Shown here piece by piece: positions 54,241-62,578 of a stretch of 64,000 nt of DNA (its first letter is position 1; each line of letters begins with the position of its first letter). The stretch lies in the NCBI GenBank assembly GCA_964544585.1, contig CAZJBV010000001.1, positions 119,717-183,716 of the forward strand, in the 5' to 3' direction. The stretch comes from an uncultured Gammaproteobacteria bacterium. GTDB lineage: Bacteria; Patescibacteriota; Microgenomatia; 2-02-FULL-39-11. The notes beneath the pieces are model-generated. The model did not search any database. It was not told where the DNA came from and saw only the letters and a list, made by a program, of their open reading frames with translations. Made by a program: the position numbers and the translations under genes.

Positions 54241-54726
54241 TTATTCTTTTTTGATCATAGTGTCAATTACATCGTAGATAGTATCCCAGTCAAAACCTCT
54301 TCTTGCCAGGGCTCCTTCCAGTTTTTGTTTTAGTTCGACTTTTGGGAGATTTTTATATAAATTCAGTTTTTTTTGGGCGACTGTGAGAGCTTTTTCAAAT
54401 TCGCTGCGATACAATTTATTTACAGAGAAAAACTCTTCAATATCGGCTGTCGCGATGCCTTTTTGGCGAAGTTCTTGTTTTAAAAGCATTTTTCCTTTGG
54501 GTCGGAAAGTGTCTCTTTGATCGACCCACCATGAAATAAAAGCTTTATCCGAAACTAATTTTCGCTCTTCCAAGTCCGTAATGACTTTGTCGATTGTTTT
54601 TTTGGCGATACCGCGTTTAAAACTATATTGAAAAAGTTTGCCATAGAGTTCTTTTTGGGAACGGGGGCGAATTGATAAAAGTTTTAGGGCTTTATCGATA
54701 AGAAGTTGGTATTGATCTTGATCCAT
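54241..54726 (-). CDS. recX: regulatory protein RecX
   Basis: A 161-aa helical-repeat protein immediately downstream of recA. Confidence 0.75.
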   Translation of the reverse strand: MDQDQYQLLIDKALKLLSIRPRSQKELYGKLFQYSFKRGIAKKTIDKVITDLEERKLVSDKAFISWWVDQRDTFRPKGKMLLKQELRQKGIATADIEEFFSVNKLYRSEFEKALTVAQKKLNLYKNLPKVELKQKLEGALARRGFDWDTIYDVIDTMIKKE

Positions 54727-55754
54727 TAATCAGATTTTTCTCTACCTGTTTTTTCTTTGGCGTGGCCGGTTTTATGTGCTTTATATATTTGTTCCAAAAT
54801 TTCGCGGGCTAATTTATGATTTTCTTTTAAGTACATTTTGGCTGCTTCTCTACCCTGACCGAGCATGGTCGTCCCATACTTTAGAAAAGCGCCGGATTTG
54901 GTGATAATGCTATATTCTAGGCCAACATCGATAAGACCCCCTTCTCTGGATATACCACTACTATCGATATCGAATTCTGCAATTTTGAAGGGAGGCGAAA
55001 CTTTGTTTTTGACTATTCTTACCCTATGACGTGTTCCTACCACCTGATCCCCATCTTTAAGAGTCTCTATTTTCCTGATATCGATCCTAATTGAGGCATA
55101 AAACTTGAGGGCCAAGCCTCCGGGAGTCGTTTCGGGATTGCCAAACATAATGCCTATTTTTTGGCGCAGCTGATTGGTAAAAAGACAAATTGTTTTGGAC
55201 TTGGAGATAACGCCTGTGAGTTTGCGAAGTGCTTGGGACATGAGGCGGGCCTGCATACCCATGACAGCATCACCCATCTCGCCTTCGATTTCGGCTCGCG
55301 GGACTAGAGCTGCGACTGAATCTATAACGACGACATCAACTCCCCCAGACCTTATTAATGTCTCTGCAATTTCTAGGGCTTGCTCGCCTGTGTCGGGCTG
55401 GGAAATAAGAAGATCTTCCAGTTTGACACCCAGTCTTTCTGCCCAGACGGGATCGAGGGCGTGCTCGGCATCAATAAAGGCGGCTACACCTCCGTGCTTT
55501 TGGGCTTCGGCAATAACAGTCAGAGCAAGGGTTGTTTTTCCGGATGCCTCGGGGCCGAATATTTCGGCGATTCGCCCTTTAGGTAAGCCTCCTATTCCTA
55601 GGGCAAGATCGACGGCAATAGAACCTGTGGGGATAACATCAATTGTTAGTTTTTGGGTTGACTCGCCTAATTTCATGATAGATCCTTTGCCGTACTGCTT
55701 TTCTATCTGCTCCATCGCCAGTTTAATTGCTTGGAATTTTTGGTCGTTTGTCAT
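54726..55754 (-). CDS. recA: recombinase RecA
   Basis: Has Walker [10 protein letters not shown], the L1/L2 loops, and highly conserved sequence throughout. Confidence 0.95.
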
Positions 55755-55808: not shown

Positions 55809-57410
55809 TTACATAGATAATGCTAGAATACAATAGTTCAAAACGGGGTGTAGGTCATCGGTAGACCGCGCGCATGGGGTGCGTGAAGTAGTGGGTTCAA
55901 TTCCCGCCACCCCGACAGATAGAGAGTCCGCGAAGCGGACGGAAGGTTGGGTCTGCGCGCCCCCACTCGCGCAGACTTCTGCAAAGCCCTGATTATATTC
56001 TGGGACAAGCCGCCGATCAGTTAAAAAGAAGTTCGAGCCGACAGTTTTTGCCATGATCGACAGATCATGGGATGTATTTTTTGCGCGCGCGATTTTTGCG
56101 CACGATAGTGCGCTACCAATGAAGTTTTTGAAAGGTTCGAGCCAACTCGAACCATTTTGTTTTATTTGTTCTAATTCTTCACTTATTTTTAATTTTTCTT
56201 CGAAAAATTCGTTCTTTTTTGTCTTGTAAATTTCGGGGTCAATAATTCCTTCTAAGTAACCATCTAAGAGTTTATTAAGTTTTACATCAATATCTTTTAA
56301 TTGCTGCTCTAATTTTAGGGTATTATCGTGAATGGATACAGTCTCTAATTTCTCATCCTCATCTAGCCATTTATACCAATTACTAGCCCATTTTTCTGGT
56401 AATGCAACATCATCAATGGCTTTTCTAAATTGTTGTTCAAGCTCTGGTTCTGAAATGTAAGGTTGATTGCAGGGTTTAATTTTTTTAGTACATCTATAGT
56501 AAACATATTCAACAGTTCTATTTGTTCCTTTGTAGAATTTTTTATGAGATTCAGCGGTAATAGTTGCTCCACACTCTCCACATCTCATTAAACCCATAAA
56601 GGGGAAATTATATCTTCTTTTTTTATGTCTATCCCTAAACTTTAATTCTTGCTGGACTTTTTGGAATAACTCTTTACTTATAATAGTTTTATGAGTACCC
56701 TCGTGATATTCTCCGTTGTAATACATTATGCCTATGTAAAATCTGTCTGATAAAATCTGGCGGATTTGATTTATATGTAGGGGTTTATCAATTTTTCTTT
56801 TAAGGTCAAACTTATATAGAAAGGTCGCAATATCAGTAAAAGTTTTGTCGCCTTCGCTAAATAATTCAAAAGCCTTCTTAATTGCTTTTAGTTTTTCTCC
56901 ATCTACATCTATCCCACGGGTTTTAGGATTATTAATATACCCATAAGGAGCTTTGCCAGGATAAACACCATTGCGGATTTTTTGTCTTAACCCACGTCTT
57001 ACATTTTCAGATAAATTATCCACATAATATTTACTCTGACCAAAGGCAATATTTAACATAAATTTTCCCTGGGGAGTATTTTCAAACCAAGAGGTCGGAA
57101 ATTTTAAGTCCTTCAATTTCCCGGTATCTAAAAGGTAAATTATTTTCCCACCATCTATTGAGTTACGAGCTAATCTATCAGGATGCCACGCAATAATCCC
57201 TTGTATATGACCTTTTTCTATTTTCTTCAAAACTTCCGCAAATTTTTCTCTGCCCGGAATCTTGGCAGTTTTTTCTTCTTCAACAAATTCGGTAATTTCC
57301 AAATGCTCTCTTTTAGCGTATTCTTTTAGCTCGGCAATTTGAGCAGAGATAGATAAAATCTGTTTATCTTTTTCTTCTCTGGATTTTCTACAGTAAGCAA
57401 TGTATTTCAT
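55809..57410 (-). CDS. large serine recombinase (resolvase domain + recombinase domain + zinc ribbon)
   Basis: An N-terminal YCRKSREE...SISAQ catalytic-serine motif, a recombinase domain, and CGECG...YYRC. The last ~90 codons read through IR1-L and antisense tRNA-Pro (GIEPTTS), so the true C-terminus is uncertain. Confidence 0.8.
   Translation of the reverse strand: MKYIAYCRKSREEKDKQILSISAQIAELKEYAKREHLEITEFVEEEKTAKIPGREKFAEVLKKIEKGHIQGIIAWHPDRLARNSIDGGKIIYLLDTGKLKDLKFPTSWFENTPQGKFMLNIAFGQSKYYVDNLSENVRRGLRQKIRNGVYPGKAPYGYINNPKTRGIDVDGEKLKAIKKAFELFSEGDKTFTDIATFLYKFDLKRKIDKPLHINQIRQILSDRFYIGIMYYNGEYHEGTHKTIISKELFQKVQQELKFRDRHKKRRYNFPFMGLMRCGECGATITAESHKKFYKGTNRTVEYVYYRCTKKIKPCNQPYISEPELEQQFRKAIDDVALPEKWASNWYKWLDEDEKLETVSIHDNTLKLEQQLKDIDVKLNKLLDGYLEGIIDPEIYKTKKNEFFEEKLKISEELEQIKQNGSSWLEPFKNFIGSALSCAKIARAKNTSHDLSIMAKTVGSNFFLTDRRLVPEYNQGFAEVCASGGAQTQPSVRFADSLSVGVAGIEPTTSRTPCARSTDDLHPVLNYCILALSM
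55844..55915 (+). tRNA. tRNA-Pro (anticodon GGG)
   Basis: Cloverleaf: acceptor cggggtg/caccccg, D stem ggtc/gacc, anticodon stem cgcgc/gcgtg with loop aTGGGgt, T arm gtggg-ttcaatt-cccgc, discriminator A. Confidence 0.75.
55913..56015. repeat. IR1-L: 103-bp perfect inverted copy of 57519-57621
   Basis: Exact reverse complement of IR1-R. It starts 3 nt inside the 3' end of tRNA-Pro. It contains the internal hairpin gtctgcgcg-agtggggg-cgcgcagac. Confidence 0.9.
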
Positions 57411-57518
57411 TTTTTATTTTCCTCTTATAAGAAGAGTTCTTTTGCGAGCGAAGCGAGCAGTCCCGATGATATATCGGGACAAAATTTTTGCGTTCCTCGT
57501 TTTTTGTTCTTTTTAACC

Positions 57519-57700
57519 GGCGGCTTGTCCCAGAATATAATCAGGGCTTTGCAGAAGTCTGCGCGAGTGGGGGCGCGCAGACCCAACCTTCCGTCCGCTT
57601 CGCGGACTCTCTATCTGTCGACCTTTTTAAAAAAATCCGAACTCGCTTTAAGTCGAATCGGTAGGCGCGCTACGCGCGCCATCTTATCCGCTCGGCCTTC
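57519..57700. repeat. IR1-R (57519-57621) fused to IR2-L (57615-57700): the junction segment of two inverted-repeat-bounded modules
   Basis: The left 103 nt are the exact reverse complement of 55913-56015. The right 86 nt are the exact reverse complement of 62493-62578. Confidence 0.9.
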
Positions 57701-57850
57701 GGCCGAAGCTCTTAAACTGTCGGCCGAACCAGTCCGTAGGACTGCAAAAAACGCAAAAATTTTAAAGAACTTTTGTTATTTCTGTTTGCTTATTCCAATT
57801 TGGCATATTACATTTTGGAATATATCATATACTGTATCTTATTTTCAACT

Positions 57851-58078
57851 ATGAAAAAATCTATTTTTTCGGAGGATCATAAATATTTAGTAAGTCAACT
57901 TAAAAAAGCCAGAGAAGAAGCATCTCTTGAGCAAGAAGAGGTGGCTAAGTTACTTGGAAAAACTCAATCTTATATTTCAAAAATAGAGTCAGGTCAAAGA
58001 AGAATAGACATCGTTCAATTAAAACAATTTGCGAAGTTATACAAGAAAGAGGTTAATTTCTTTATTAAAAAGGCATGA
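57851..58078 (+). CDS. XRE-family HTH protein, probable R-M controller (C) protein
   Basis: A 75-aa Cro/C1-type HTH (QEEVAKLLGKTQSYISKIESGQR). Its stop overlaps the downstream ORF start (ATGA), as in C-R operons. Confidence 0.6.
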   Translation: MKKSIFSEDHKYLVSQLKKAREEASLEQEEVAKLLGKTQSYISKIESGQRRIDIVQLKQFAKLYKKEVNFFIKKA

Positions 58079-58920
58079 GAAGAAAAGAAATAATTAAATT
58101 TATCACCGGAATGATCGAAGAAGGTGGATTAACCTTTACTGATTATGCGACTAAACTCGAGGAGATAGTTAATAAACTATCGTTGGAAGATATAAAAATA
58201 AGCCTACTTGAATGTGGCGTAATCCCAGAGTCTTTTAATCACGATTCAACGGAAGAAAAATTATATTCAAAATATTCAGATATGTTACTTGCAAGAGCGT
58301 TCACATTCATCGGAATAGATTCCAAAGTTATTAAAGAAAGAGCAGATGCGGCAGATGTTGAGGGTAAAACTAAAGACTACACTCTTGTTGCAGATGGAAA
58401 GGTCTTTCGGTTAAGCCGAACTGCTAAGAATCAGAAGGATTTTAAGGTCGAAGCGTTAGATAAATGGAGGAACGGTAAAGATTTCGCTTGTTTGGTATCT
58501 CCTCTTTATCAATACCCTAAAAGTAAAAGTCAAATTTATAGACAAGCTATTGGTAGAAATGTTACCTTATTTTCCTATATCCACCTATATTTTATTCTCT
58601 CTCAAAATAAGTCGAACCAGTGCAACTATAAACCCTTATGGTTGGTTAGTAAGAAATTAAAAGGTGCAAAAGGAGCAGTAACTTATTGGAAGGGAATTGA
58701 TAAGACGCTTTGCAAAATCCTAAATAAAAGTCTAAAAGAGCTAGAAGCGATTAAAAAACTTGAGCTTGATTTACTAAAAGAATCTGCAAAAGAAGAAGTG
58801 GCATATATTGAAGGTAAAATTGAAACAATAAAATCATTATCACATACCGAGGCTATTGAGAGATTAATAAAAGCAGAAAAACTTGATCAGAAAATTAATC
58901 AAATAACAAGAATGGCTTGA
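58075..58920 (+). CDS. putative Type II restriction endonuclease (by context)
   Basis: A 281-aa protein with no family signature recognised. It is translationally coupled to the C-protein and convergent with the methyltransferase. There is a possible PD-(D/E)xK arrangement (GID ... DVEGK). Confidence 0.35.
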   Translation: MRRKEIIKFITGMIEEGGLTFTDYATKLEEIVNKLSLEDIKISLLECGVIPESFNHDSTEEKLYSKYSDMLLARAFTFIGIDSKVIKERADAADVEGKTKDYTLVADGKVFRLSRTAKNQKDFKVEALDKWRNGKDFACLVSPLYQYPKSKSQIYRQAIGRNVTLFSYIHLYFILSQNKSNQCNYKPLWLVSKKLKGAKGAVTYWKGIDKTLCKILNKSLKELEAIKKLELDLLKESAKEEVAYIEGKIETIKSLSHTEAIERLIKAEKLDQKINQITRMA

Positions 58921-60495
58921 TTAAAATAGAGGTTCCTGATTTACTTTACCATTTTTTGGATTAGAAACATAAGCTCCATTTAATCTTTTTTTGGCAATCT
59001 CGCAAAATTCACTGGAAATTTCAAAACCAATATATTTTCTATTAAGATTCTTTGCCGCAATAGCGGTCGAACCGGAACCAAGAAATGGATCCATAATAAC
59101 CTGACCATCTTTTGTTACAAGCCTAATTAAATATTCTAATAACTCCACTGGCTTCTGTGCTTCGTGTAGTCCTCCTTCGCCTTTGCCAAAACCAAACTGT
59201 AGAATATTTGTCGGAGATTTTCCGTTGATTAAAGACGCATCTATATTCATGGCTCCTACTTTATTTTTTAGTACATTATCTGTAATTGTAATTTCATAGG
59301 GTTTAAATAACCAGGCAATCGGTTCATATTTTGGCGCGAGATTACCAACCTTCCAACCTTCCCATTCCTTTGCTTCTTCTACCAATCCTCTTTTCTTAAT
59401 AATTTCACTTATATATTGAGCTCTGTGATGAGCATTTGGTTTTTCCCAAGCTAGGATATCTCTTAACAGAAACCCACTATCTTCAAGAGCTATAATTGCC
59501 CTGTGCAGAGTTCTTCTTGCGCCGAAAATAAATATACTTGCGCCTTCTTTTAAAGAAGGGTAGAGCTTTTTTGCCCACGAATAACACCATTCTTGGTATT
59601 CTTTTGGGATATTTCTGTCTGCGCTTGACCACCCATTAATAGGTTTTCCTCTTCTCCGAAATGCCTTTTTGCCTATCTGTGCAGGTGATTGTCCTAAAAG
59701 GGCGGAGTTTGTGTTAGCGTGTAAAACATCCCATTCATCCAGTGATATTCCATAAGGAATATCCGACAGAACTAGATCTATTGAATCCGGCTTCACCTTA
59801 TCTAGAAGTTCTATAGCATCACCACAAAGAATTTGATTTTCTTCAATATATTCGGATGGACTAACTTTATTTTCAGTTTCTGGAGGTAAATTAGTTTTGG
59901 TATTGAGATTTTTAATAATGTCAATAACAATTCCTTGCACAATTAAATTTTCTGGATCAACAAAAAATGGATCTAAACTTGAATTTGCTGGCTGAAGTCT
60001 TATTTTTCCTCTTTCCCTATATAATTTTTTCAAAGTTACTTCTGAATTGTTTATTAATGCAACTACTTTTTGTCCATTATCGGCTGTAGGTTGGCTTTTT
60101 ACTATTACTATATCTCCATGATCAATATTTTCATCAATCATACTTTGTCCAGCAACACGTAGGCCGTAGAAATCACCATTTTTCGGTATTTTTGATTTTG
60201 GTACTGCTATAAACTCTTTATCTTCAATAGCTAAAATTGGTTGTCCCGCAGCAATAGTGCCAAGCAGAGGAATCTGTACCATTTGCATCTCATCATACAC
60301 ATCAATTGCCCGAGGCTGATTTTCTTCTTTTCTTAACAAACCCAAATCTTCTAATGCCTTGACGTGATGATGGGCTGTTGAAACAGAGGATAGCCTTAAA
60401 TGCTTCTTTATTTCTTCCAAAGAAGGAGCATAACCATGTTTAGTTTTGTAGGATTTTATATATTCCAGAACTTGCTTTTGTCTTTTTGTAATCAT
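58921..60495 (-). CDS. LexA repressor (HTH + S24 peptidase) fused to a beta-class N4/N6 DNA amino-methyltransferase
   Basis: The N-terminal ~205 aa have the LexA architecture: a wHTH domain, the AAG cleavage site (TIAAGQP), catalytic Ser (AGQSM) and Lys (TLKKL). The C-terminal ~320 aa have motif IV SDIPYG preceding motif I DPFLGSGST (PF01555-like). It is a single open frame with no internal start. Confidence 0.75.
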   Translation of the reverse strand: MITKRQKQVLEYIKSYKTKHGYAPSLEEIKKHLRLSSVSTAHHHVKALEDLGLLRKEENQPRAIDVYDEMQMVQIPLLGTIAAGQPILAIEDKEFIAVPKSKIPKNGDFYGLRVAGQSMIDENIDHGDIVIVKSQPTADNGQKVVALINNSEVTLKKLYRERGKIRLQPANSSLDPFFVDPENLIVQGIVIDIIKNLNTKTNLPPETENKVSPSEYIEENQILCGDAIELLDKVKPDSIDLVLSDIPYGISLDEWDVLHANTNSALLGQSPAQIGKKAFRRRGKPINGWSSADRNIPKEYQEWCYSWAKKLYPSLKEGASIFIFGARRTLHRAIIALEDSGFLLRDILAWEKPNAHHRAQYISEIIKKRGLVEEAKEWEGWKVGNLAPKYEPIAWLFKPYEITITDNVLKNKVGAMNIDASLINGKSPTNILQFGFGKGEGGLHEAQKPVELLEYLIRLVTKDGQVIMDPFLGSGSTAIAAKNLNRKYIGFEISSEFCEIAKKRLNGAYVSNPKNGKVNQEPLF

Positions 60496-60602
60496 AGATA
60501 TTGACAGCTCAAGAATAATTCTATACAATTAGGTTAATCGAAAATGAATCGAAAGTCAAGTGGTTAAAATTTAACCTGAAGATTAAAGGGGGTGATGAAA
60601 AT

Positions 60603-60815
60603 ATGACTCATCGTAAAGGATCAAAACCAAATCATAAAGGAGAGCAGTGGACAGAATCACAAGTTGAGCGTCTTGAGAATTTGGCTAAAAGGAATACACC
60701 TACCCCTTTAATTGCAGATGCATTAGGTAGAACGGAGGGGGCAATAAGATCTAAAACATCGGAAGAGAATATTTCTCTTAAGCCAATCAATAAATCTCCC
60801 TATAGTAGAAGGTAA
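60603..60815 (+). CDS. small GcrA/Myb-like HTH protein
   Basis: W-T-E..V..L..L......P..IA..LGRT..A...K resembles the GcrA N-terminal/SANT-like DNA-binding fold. A good SD (aagggggtga) lies upstream. Confidence 0.35.
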   Translation: MTHRKGSKPNHKGEQWTESQVERLENLAKRNTPTPLIADALGRTEGAIRSKTSEENISLKPINKSPYSRR

Positions 60816-60836: not shown

Positions 60837-61814
60837 ATGGACTTATTTTCGAAAGTCAAACCATCACTTTTTATAGCCCGTCCTTGGGATACATCCTTTG
60901 CTGAACTTTATGAACCCATTAAGAAAAACCTCGTTGGTAAATGGGAAATTAATGACGGCCCCCTTATAGTTAAAGAAGATGAGGCTCAAGCAGAAAGAGA
61001 AATGTTCATAGGTAGAAACAAGCAACTGTACGAACAGATTGTTTTAGGGATAAAGAAGTCAGATGTCTTTATTGCCGATGTAACAAATGCTAATGCAAAC
61101 GTTATGATGGAATTAGGAATTGCAATACAACTAAACAAAAATGTCATTATAGTGACAGGGCAAGATAGGAATAGACTCCCGTTTGATATACAGGGTTTTA
61201 AAGCAGAAAAATATGATAATATAAATGACCTCGGTGAAAAAATTGGAAATGGACTTTCTTTATATTTATCAATAAAAGAACAGAATTTTGATAAGCCCTT
61301 TCCAGAAAACCACATACCTATATCTGATGGGAAATTAACGGGACTTAGGGCAATAATGCCGATTCAACTTTCCAAACCTATTAAAAATTTAAAGCTGAGA
61401 ATCGAATACAAATTTGTAAATAAATCTGATGATCAGGATTGGCTAGGAATACATTTGCGAGCATCTCCCTCTATTCAACCTTCTGAATTAGTGTATGTTA
61501 GATCAAATGGTAGCTTAGAGATTGTAACGCTCCCTACCAGACCTGCACCCTCGGTAGGAGTAGATAAAGAAAATATAGATAACAGGTTAGAAGATGGATA
61601 CACTAGATTAGAACTAATTCTTGATGGCAATAAATTACTGGCCGCTACCTCAACTAAAGAGTTATATGACGATTTAATTCAAATAGAATCGTTCGGCAGT
61701 ATATTTCTTCAGGCAAATGGACATAGCCAAGATCCACAAAAACGAGAGAGTCTTGAGATTGATTTTAGAAATTTTGAAATTATTAATATAGATACGACAA
61801 GTCCTAACTCGTAA
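60837..61814 (+). CDS. nucleoside 2-deoxyribosyltransferase-like (NDT/TIR-like Rossmann) N-domain protein with unknown beta-rich C-domain
   Basis: The N-terminus (LFIARPW ... SDVFIADVTNANANVMMELGIAIQLNKNVIIV) resembles the PF05014/PF15891 fold. The C-terminal 180 aa are unassigned. Confidence 0.45.
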   Translation: MDLFSKVKPSLFIARPWDTSFAELYEPIKKNLVGKWEINDGPLIVKEDEAQAEREMFIGRNKQLYEQIVLGIKKSDVFIADVTNANANVMMELGIAIQLNKNVIIVTGQDRNRLPFDIQGFKAEKYDNINDLGEKIGNGLSLYLSIKEQNFDKPFPENHIPISDGKLTGLRAIMPIQLSKPIKNLKLRIEYKFVNKSDDQDWLGIHLRASPSIQPSELVYVRSNGSLEIVTLPTRPAPSVGVDKENIDNRLEDGYTRLELILDGNKLLAATSTKELYDDLIQIESFGSIFLQANGHSQDPQKRESLEIDFRNFEIINIDTTSPNS

Positions 61815-62492
61815 ATTATATTTTTATTTTTTAACCTTTGAAGCGGCTCCGCCGCCCCCGCCCTGTTGGGGATAATTTCCCTTAAAGGAGGGCTGCCGTC
61901 AGAAAAACTTTCAAGTAGGGAGCTAAAAGAAAATCTGGGATAGGCAGCCCGACAAACGCGAGAGCCGAGAGGAATATTTTCGGATTATAGAAAAACTCGG
62001 CTCGAGCCATCGGAATCAGTAGCGTAGCGAGCTCTCGAGAGCGAGCAAGCGGTGGGAAGCAGAAGGGGTACAAATAATAAAGGCGGGGGCGAAAAGCGGA
62101 ATACCCCCGCAACGGCAGGAGATACTAAAACAGAAAAAGGGGAGGCGAGGAGCGGCCGAAGGCTATTTTGTTCTTCGCTCCTCGCCGTGGTAGAGACTGT
62201 AAAGCGAAAATAGAAAACCCCTAATATGGGAAAGGCTCCCCCTAGGGAGCCCTCTCGCCCAAAAGCGGGGGTGCCGCTTCCTTTTAATTGGGTGGGAGGG
62301 ATGATGGGAATTTGTACCAGCGTATAGATATATGTTTTTAAAGGGAGCGTTAAGTTAGTTTTCCGCGGATGGGTGGGTTGGGCCAAGGAAAACATTTGTG
62401 TTTTTGTTACTTTACCTGTCCGCGTCAGCGGACTATAATAAATAAAAATCGCGCGCATTTCTGTCTTTGCAAAAAATACTAGAGCGAGGCCA
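61815..62492 (+). other. GC- and purine-rich non-coding segment with dense local hairpins (candidate structured RNA)
   Basis: No credible ORF. GC is far above background. There are multiple perfect hairpins (gaggcgaggagcg/cgctcctcgcc, ggctccccctagggagcc, gcgggggc...gcccccgc). Confidence 0.35.
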
Positions 62493-62578
62493 AAGGCCGA
62501 GCGGATAAGATGGCGCGCGTAGCGCGCCTACCGATTCGACTTAAAGCGAGTTCGGATTTTTTTAAAAAGGTCGACAGA
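62493..62578. repeat. IR2-R: 86-bp perfect inverted copy of 57615-57700
   Basis: Exact reverse complement. Contains the hairpin ggcgcgc-tac-gcgcgcc. Confidence 0.9.

Follow-up and report, generated by a model that had tools for sequence, protein, structure and literature searches.

How restriction-modification (R-M) systems spare their own host and set the ratio of methylase to nuclease is a long-standing question, to which the known answers are controller proteins (C-proteins), methylases with a simple helix-turn-helix (HTH) head, methylation-sensitive promoters and, in type I systems only, damage-induced restriction alleviation. A 64,000-nucleotide (nt) stretch of contig CAZJBV010000001.1 (assembly GCA_964544585.1; hereafter the window), assigned to the Patescibacteria or Candidate Phyla Radiation (CPR), contains a gene that may add another. 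Its open reading frame (ORF) encodes a protein of 524 amino acids (aa) in which a complete LexA repressor is joined to a DNA methyltransferase, and the question it raises is whether DNA damage has been given a direct hold on the modification arm of an R-M system. If true, a self-cleaving LexA in a methylase would give type II methylases their first signal-responsive regulator, and R-M control would be tied directly to RecA. The reading favoured here, that of an autorepressing LexA-methylase which is de-repressed by RecA-stimulated self-cleavage and thereby shifts the methylase-to-endonuclease (M:R) balance towards protection, is given about an even chance of being right as a whole.

A LexA repressor and a DNA methyltransferase in one frame

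The fusion gene (58921..60495, minus strand) is an ATG-started ORF with matches in Pfam, NCBIfam and the PDB; an alternative in-frame TTG at 60528 would add 11 residues, and the homologues all start M[IL]TKRQ. Residues 2-63 (60307..60492, minus strand) form a LexA winged-HTH domain (PF01726, LexA_DNA_bind, 62.7 bits) with the recognition helix S-T-A-H-H-H-V-K-A-L, and residues 76-191 (59923..60270, minus strand) form a Peptidase S24 domain (PF00717, 91.6 bits). The predicted self-cleavage site, Ala83-Gly84, can be read from the sequence as codons GCG GGA (60244..60249, minus strand), and the dyad within the S24 domain consists of Ser118 (60142-60144) and Lys156 (60028-60030), on the same strand. 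These residues align with A84-G85, S119 and K156 of E. coli LexA. Moreover, the NCBIfam lexA equivalog TIGR00498 reaches 181.5 bits over residues 2-197 against a cut-off of 110.95, the best solved relatives of the N-terminal part are LexA of Thermotoga (3k2z, 2e-31) and E. coli LexA, and LexA structures align over residues 2-196 in the PDB comparison. The full LexA with winged HTH, Ala-Gly site and Ser/Lys dyad, which had been proposed in an earlier reading of the sequence alone, is thus borne out by three profiles and by alignment to E. coli.

The other half is a beta-class N6/N4 DNA methyltransferase core at residues 239-503 (58987..59781, minus strand), matched by PF01555 over its full length (model 1-221 of 221, 155.5 bits) and by a PADLOC type II methyltransferase model (2e-118), with the beta-class methylases CcrM, DpnA, MboIIA, RsrI and PvuII as solved relatives. 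As the same reading had it, motif IV (SDIPYG, residues 244-249, 59749-59766) precedes motif I (FLGSGST, residues 471-477, 59065-59085), the codons of both being read directly from the minus strand. Motif IV is D-I-P-Y instead of D-P-P-Y, likewise in all close homologues, and D245, P247 and Y248 are invariant in the alignment of fusion homologues together with the DPF-GSG-T residues. The core is 63-79% identical to unfused stand-alone methylases.

The two parts are connected by a variable, disordered linker at about residues 197-232 (59800..59907, minus strand), which is unalignable among homologues and acts as the recombination junction. Structure prediction for the full protein with AlphaFold2 (mean predicted local distance difference test score, pLDDT, 69.9) gives three folded modules with disordered segments at residues 58-69 and 198-212, the latter with pLDDT <50. 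There is no stop and no restart between the LexA and methylase modules. A missed stop, a frameshift or a chimeric assembly joining two genes was considered and rejected as a negligible prospect: three further sequencing runs, assembled separately, yield the identical 524-aa protein, in more than 40 clusters at 50% identity the head occupies residues 1-198 of a protein that is 400 aa or longer, and the junction stays in frame across homologues at 45-93% identity, the range over which the same three-domain architecture recurs in more than 30 clusters. The observation of a complete LexA and a full beta-class methyltransferase in one frame is confirmed.

The architecture, which had been regarded as non-standard, is not a one-off and belongs to a large CPR family. 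In a genome scan that used one genome per species and the head alignment as query, 33 of the best 80 loci have the head followed by a C-terminal extension, for a total of 450-813 aa. The fused loci come mostly from Patescibacteria (Saccharibacteria, Parcubacteria, Berkel-, Kaiser-, Ryan-, Taga-, Levy-, Nomura-, Harrison- and Uhrbacteria), and one is from Omnitrophica. Their extensions fall into at least nine sequence clusters and, according to Pfam, four unrelated DNA methyltransferase families, i.e. N6_N4_Mtase (several subtypes), MethyltransfD12, N6_Mtase/Eco57I/TaqI_C and C-5 DNA_methylase. A search with the head alone covered 1.84 billion representatives exhaustively; among its best 150 clusters at 50% identity, 41 consist of proteins no shorter than 400 aa with the head at residues 1-198, as do most of the top 40. 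Ten further fusions, the longest included, proved to be DNA methylases again, which brings the examined partners to 20 DNA methyltransferases out of 20, with no non-methylase partner among the fusions scanned.

The ordinary stand-alone LexAs of CPR bacteria are 58-67% identical to the head, and for this reason the head is placed in the CPR LexA lineage. The closest stand-alone lexA genes also adjoin R-M genes, namely a methylase with R.TdeIII, R.AlwI or an Mrr-like nuclease. A phage origin, as a CI-like lysogeny repressor, was rejected, as just two close relatives were found in 2.9 million viral contigs and both are methylase fusions.

In alignment to E. coli LexA, the Ala-Gly site, the Ser and the Lys are invariant in all 33 fused heads, at identities down to ~45%, and in 44 stand-alone relatives. 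This bears on a simpler proposal, namely that the LexA head is only a dimeric DNA-binding module whose self-cleavage is physiologically unused. Known HTH-methylases need no protease, and clusters P0059 and P0066 (382 aa; short contigs) lack the S24 domain altogether, the winged HTH being followed immediately by a methylase core of HindIII type, so that they amount to natural non-cleavable forms of the fusion. However, the cleavage residues have stayed invariant despite deep divergence and repeated domain shuffling, which is hard to explain without selection for cleavage, and a plain autorepressor is considered unlikely.

Predicted operators and what they control

The promoter of the fusion gene (60531..60559, minus strand) has a -35 box TTGACT (60554-60559) and a weak -10 box TAACCT (60531-60536). 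On the minus strand it reads TTGACT-TTCGATTCATTTTCGAT-TAACCT, and its 17-nt spacer is filled by a tandem direct repeat, TTTCGAT-TCAT-TTTCGAT, with an 11-bp period (60537..60554, minus strand), which is the predicted operator of the LexA head. TTTCGAT-N4-TTTCGAT has this single perfect match in 64 kb, and matches with three mismatches occur at chance level. In related loci an 11-bp-spaced tandem repeat lies in the same place, its second unit running into TATAAT behind a -35 box TTGAC(T/A). When 34 related loci were examined with 5-12 kb of flanks, the best cognate tandem repeat of each locus was found almost solely at -27..-82 of the fusion gene. It can be said with good confidence that the head would make the methylase repress its own promoter.

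The repeat unit varies with the recognition helix. Helices ending in K/G-L go with a TTTCTAT unit in 17 of 17 cases and those ending in A/S-L with TTTCGAT in 8 of 8 (Fisher p 9e-7, uncorrected for phylogeny), and Q or E at the second helix position is accompanied by TTCGG in 13 of 16 loci, compared with 0 of 27 otherwise. Several repeat units read GTTC-N7-GTTC, a direct-repeat LexA box known from other phyla (PMC8565304), and for LexA of Patescibacteria, too, such a motif has been cited (PMC7739468). Stand-alone CPR LexAs use the same operator types. Together with the architecture and the conserved catalytic residues, the position of the operator and its covariation with the helix are demonstrated in silico.

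Operator distribution also speaks to the possibility that the fusion is the global SOS repressor of the organism, acting over a chromosomal damage regulon with the methylase as passenger or epigenetic marker. The protein passes the lexA equivalog cut-off, its relatives carry automatic NCBI names such as 'transcriptional repressor LexA' alongside 'site-specific DNA-methyltransferase', and its operator types are common to stand-alone CPR LexAs. In addition, no second LexA was found in the window, nor a second LexA locus in 32 fused-locus genomes among the best 80 loci of a pattern-based scan, which is weak evidence. LexA is defined, however, as the chromosomal repressor of the canonical SOS network of repair and translesion genes (PMC8565304), and in a test that covered the window and the locus flanks no other operator was found in the 64 kb, recA/recX included. 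In related loci the operator is seen almost solely in the promoter of the fusion gene, only R-M methylases occur as partners, and the gene sits on an integrase-bearing mobile island with differing neighbourhoods between genomes. Given this operator distribution and the mobility of the cassette, a global role is disfavoured and regarded as very unlikely. A local SOS regulon, too, was rejected, the cognate repeat being essentially only autoregulatory in the window and in the flanks of the 34 loci.

A second promoter, TTGACA-17-TACAAT (60501..60529, plus strand), is the best sigma-70-like match of the region (11/12) and reads divergently across the operator, which lies at about its +1..+19, into a pair of ORFs. 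The first (60603-60815, plus strand) encodes 70 aa with a weak match to a phage transcriptional-regulator family and has homologues upstream of the fusion in loci L010 and L029; the second (60837-61814, plus strand) encodes 325 aa resembling TIR and Nuc_deoxyrib_tr domains in Pfam and a TIR effector in PADLOC (3.4e-8). From the arrangement of the sites, one bound repressor could shut both divergent promoters, and the pair may be a damage-inducible defence effector co-repressed by the LexA head. A conserved co-regulated divergent gene was rejected as a feature of the family, as the divergent neighbours are heterogeneous across loci.

The endonuclease side is served by a promoter of its own, TTGGCA-17-TATCAT (57800..57828, plus strand), identified by promoter scan and accompanied by the C-box-like repeats TTGGCATATTACA / TTTTGGAATATATCA. 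Related repeats stand upstream of homologous C genes in other loci, and the C-box assignment is made from this conservation of repeats alone. No LexA-type repeat is present at this promoter, and LexA control of the endonuclease was rejected accordingly.

An exact 9-mer, TGTGGATAA/TTATCCACA, which we take to be the DnaA-box consensus, abuts or overlaps the -35 box or the operator in 18 of 32 fused loci, where ~0.003 would be expected per region. With one mismatch allowed it is found in 27 of 32, and it occurs in merely 5 of 44 stand-alone lexA promoters. The loci recorded with it are L003, L008, L011-L013, L016-L018, L020-L026, L028-L031, L034, L038, L044, L045, L053, L054 and others; it is absent from the window's fusion promoter, the nearest exact copy in the window being at 57016. 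As the 9-mer is constant whatever the recognition helix, a conserved host factor is implied.

The restriction-modification island

From left to right the window holds recX/recA, tRNA-Pro, a serine recombinase, a C-protein, an endonuclease, the fusion, the divergent ORF pair, a GC-rich non-coding stretch and a signal peptidase gene. The sequence-only reading had overlooked the neighbours that identify the system, i.e. a HindIII-type endonuclease convergent to the fusion, and its C-protein. The endonuclease (58075..58920, plus strand; 281 aa) matches PF09518 at 2.2e-76 and the HindIII structures 2e52/3a4k at 1.9e-46 over residues 20-277, and its stop codon abuts that of the fusion gene. Its start is overlapped (ATGA) by the gene for an HTH_3 controller protein (57851..58078, plus strand; PF01381, 2e-14; PADLOC control-protein models), which has homologues at the equivalent position in 12 of 32 fused loci. 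The fusion is the methylase of a C-protein-controlled, HindIII-like R-M system on a mobile island of ~6.7 kb beside tRNA-Pro. Judged solely by the homology of the endonuclease, the methylase would modify AAGCTT to give N6-methyladenine.

Similar company is kept elsewhere. The neighbour of a fusion is usually a convergent type II endonuclease, drawn from the MvaI/BcnI, TaqI, BsaWI, HindIII, AlwI, MamI, Bsp6I, MutH-like and HNH/EndoVII families, and an HTH_3 C-protein comes next after the endonuclease in 11 of 29 loci. The pairing with a HindIII-like endonuclease is seen in L001, L003, L006 and L010 as well, and co-directional downstream genes are second methylases in three of six cases. How such systems are reassorted can be seen by comparing the window with L004, to which it is 93.8% identical over 1,954 bp. 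The shared block takes in both divergent ORFs (325 and 70 aa), the intergenic promoter and precisely the LexA head, up to about residue 194; identity ends at 59912, at the linker, and does not return until the C gene, at 72%. Between these conserved blocks the methylase core of L004 is a different one, of DPPY type, and its endonuclease is ApaLI-like. Since identity flanks the swapped pair, the methylase core and the endonuclease have been exchanged as a unit between conserved regulators.

The left border of the island is formed by tRNA-Pro(GGG) (55844..55916, plus strand; ARAGORN, Rfam), followed by the gene for a large serine recombinase, an integrase (55809..57410, minus strand), with Resolvase, Recombinase and Zn_ribbon_recom domains and a match to phrog_95 integrase (1.8e-81). 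Homologues of this integrase adjoin the cassette in L001, L003, L014, L024, L037 and L045. The same cassette of recombinase, C, HindIII-like endonuclease and LexA-methylase is found beside murE/PBP genes in a Uhrbacteria genome, beside rbfA/infB in another genome and beside leuS/DUF2130 in Berkelbacteria. The recX and recA genes (54241-55754, minus strand; recA 54726-55754) lie outside the island. The distance of about 3 kb to recA, which had been offered in support of a functional link, is correct (3.2 kb) and carries no weight as evidence: tRNA-Pro and the integrase intervene, recA is without a cognate operator, and the neighbours of the cassette differ elsewhere. The linkage is therefore rejected as functional evidence and the proximity is taken as coincidental.

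Several structural features of the island may be recorded here. A GC-rich inverted-repeat pair of 103 nt (55913-56015 / 57518-57620, 100% identity) brackets the serine recombinase gene; its left arm begins at the 3' end of tRNA-Pro, inside the 3' coding region of the recombinase. The 3' end of the recombinase ORF (55809-55916) crosses the repeat arm and the entire opposite-strand tRNA-Pro, and its true C-terminus is uncertain. A second GC-rich pair of 91 nt (57614-57704 / 62488-62578, 99%) brackets C, the endonuclease, the LexA-methylase, the divergent ORFs and the GC-rich spacer, and the inner arms of the two pairs are contiguous. A perfect inverted-repeat pair of 148 nt surrounds the whole cassette in L003, and homologous repeat blocks lie beside the closest recombinase homologue in L037. 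The repeat pairs could be invertible segments or recombination sites. Short-read contigs of the window locus are limited to the R-M block enclosed by the second repeat pair. In addition, L001 and L002, two Uhrbacteria assemblies of one locus at the same chromosomal site, differ: a 511-aa serine recombinase adjoins the C gene in the one, and three short ORFs take its place in the other. This points to gain and loss of the recombinase module without the R-M genes.

The stretch at 61850-62487 has a GC content of ~50% inside a region of ~36%. Its sole long ORF (61985-62458, minus strand) looks non-protein-like, and Rfam gave no credible match for the GC-rich non-coding sequence of the island, even at E<=1. 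A segment of about 140 nt from this stretch has an 84% identical counterpart in L037, beside a further LexA-methyltransferase cassette.

In the 64-kb window no second methylase homologue is found, and AAGCTT, the expected HindIII site, is not depleted there (23 sites observed vs 19.7 expected under a maximal-order Markov model); inside the island there is no such site. Recent acquisition would fit this pattern, as would a different specificity.

Damage-released methylation and its known counterparts

In the favoured reading, a dimer of the head would bind TTTCGAT-N4-TTTCGAT between -35 and -10 and repress methylase synthesis, while the endonuclease would be under separate C-protein control from its own promoter. 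RecA filaments would form on single-stranded DNA, for example as a result of endonuclease cuts at under-methylated sites of the chromosome, or of other damage and repair synthesis. The head would then cleave itself at Ala83-Gly84, and the DNA-binding domain would leave the S24-methylase body. With the promoter de-repressed, more methylase would be made without a rise in endonuclease, and the M:R balance would move towards protection, as a type II counterpart of damage-induced restriction alleviation. Self-inflicted breaks would in this manner feed back on methylation. RecA-triggered cleavage is proposed because the cleavage site and dyad are strictly conserved and recA is present in the window. 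It has been reported that unbalanced R-M activity induces SOS (PMC3874152) and that damage-induced alleviation in type I systems protects unmodified sites arising during repair (PMC3874165). The coupling of DNA damage to R-M expression that the sequence-only reading had suggested is the best-supported reading, with a LexA-type operator now found in the gene's own promoter; the inferred steps are DNA binding, cleavage in response to RecA, what becomes of the fragments and the physiological benefit.

The fate of the fragment is also the point on which an opposite outcome can be built. Self-cleavage of E. coli LexA exposes degradation signals in its fragments. With the same intact cleavage machinery, damage could have the S24-methylase fragment destroyed, so that methylation is no longer maintained and a cell that is damaged or infected by phage dies from its stable endonuclease, as in abortive infection or addiction. 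R-M systems resemble toxin-antitoxin modules in that methylase loss kills the cell (PMC3874152), and some islands have defence-type genes beside the operator (TIR-like, patatin, SMODS). Nevertheless, cleavage would also de-repress the promoter, with new full-length protein being made continuously, existing methylation lasts until replication, there is no evidence of degrons, and the linker is variable and unconserved. Such a damage-triggered suicide switch is judged improbable.

The favoured reading, an autorepressing methylase released by damage, has several points against it. The -10 box TAACCT of this particular fusion promoter is weak, and the S24-less variants P0059 and P0066 show that the basic design can do without cleavage. 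The S24-methyltransferase fragment, if degraded, would produce the opposite outcome, and a possible separate genomic LexA would share the operator. Finally, the undepleted AAGCTT in the window leaves no footprint of long residence or activity.

A bolder version of the favoured reading, possible but doubtful, is that mobile type II R-M systems of CPR/Patescibacteria captured the LexA-RecA sensor as a portable methylase head. Breaks from self-restriction would lead to cleavage and hence to more methylation, a thermostat of autoimmunity; the R-M-borne fusion might be the only LexA in many reduced genomes; and the DnaA-box-like 9-mer in most fused promoters would hint at a second input, from replication status.

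The recurrence of the design with many unrelated CPR methylases suggests that these systems tune the protective methylase to DNA damage, and the family has a bearing on what the SOS response means in reduced CPR genomes. With at least 41 clusters at 50% identity the family is large, and it is modular too: one head goes with four methylase families and ten or more endonuclease families. The predicted operators follow a readable helix-to-DNA code, and the family could serve as a natural source of orthogonal repressor/operator pairs inducible by damage.

Among known systems, LexA itself (TIGR00498; S24 family with UmuD and lambda CI) shares with the head its winged HTH, Ala-Gly site, Ser/Lys dyad, length, domain order and a direct-repeat operator in its own promoter. 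The fusion differs in its additional C-terminal DNA methyltransferase of 320 aa, in its location on a mobile R-M island, and in showing no sign of controlling recA or another repair gene in the 64-kb window. The locus also resembles the C-protein-controlled type II systems (PvuII, AhdI, Esp1396I), in which a small HTH_3 gene precedes or overlaps the endonuclease and operator-like repeats lie in its own promoter, and the HindIII system, of whose endonuclease it has a clear homologue. Unlike in the C-protein systems, the fusion methylase possesses a second, independent, built-in regulator; we know of no classical C-dependent system with a regulator built into the methylase.

To our knowledge, no type II equivalent of damage-induced restriction alleviation has been described. 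The proposed outcome would be similar to that in type I systems, with the balance moved away from restriction after damage and unmodified repair sites spared. The means differ, in that alleviation there proceeds by proteolysis of the restriction subunit, through ClpXP degradation of HsdR (PMC3874165), whereas the fusion is predicted to de-repress a methylase by self-cleavage of a repressor. The wiring of a mobile or addictive module to the RecA signal via an S24-type repressor or a LexA box has parallels as well. One is SetR of SXT, a LexA/CI-like repressor of a mobile element. Others are the SOS-controlled toxin-antitoxin loci tisB, symE and yafNO (PMC3874152). In these cases the repressor is a separate protein; in the fusion it is a covalent part of the antitoxin-like methylase.

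No account of LexA fused to a methyltransferase was found in a full-text literature search, whose reach excluded the study of the Patescibacteria SOS network by Sanchez-Osuna et al. 2017 (Environ Microbiol). The nearest relatives in function are the methylases that autoregulate via an N-terminal HTH, such as M.EcoRII, M.SsoII/M.Ecl18kI, M.ScrFIA and M.MspI (PMC3874152). In these, too, a DNA-binding domain is fused N-terminally, the operator overlaps the methylase promoter, and an antitoxin-like methylase represses its own gene. Their heads, however, are short and simple HTHs without a protease or a known signal input, whereas the fusion has a whole LexA (~200 aa) as its head, with an S24 domain that dimerises and is predicted to cleave itself, so that repression would be releasable by damage. 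The head is not homologous to the short HTH heads of the SsoII/EcoRII type, and the resemblance is one of functional analogy, not of family membership. Methylase autoregulation by an N-terminal DNA-binding head is thus known; what appears to be new is that a complete repressor, predicted to be self-cleaving and damage-sensing, serves as the head.

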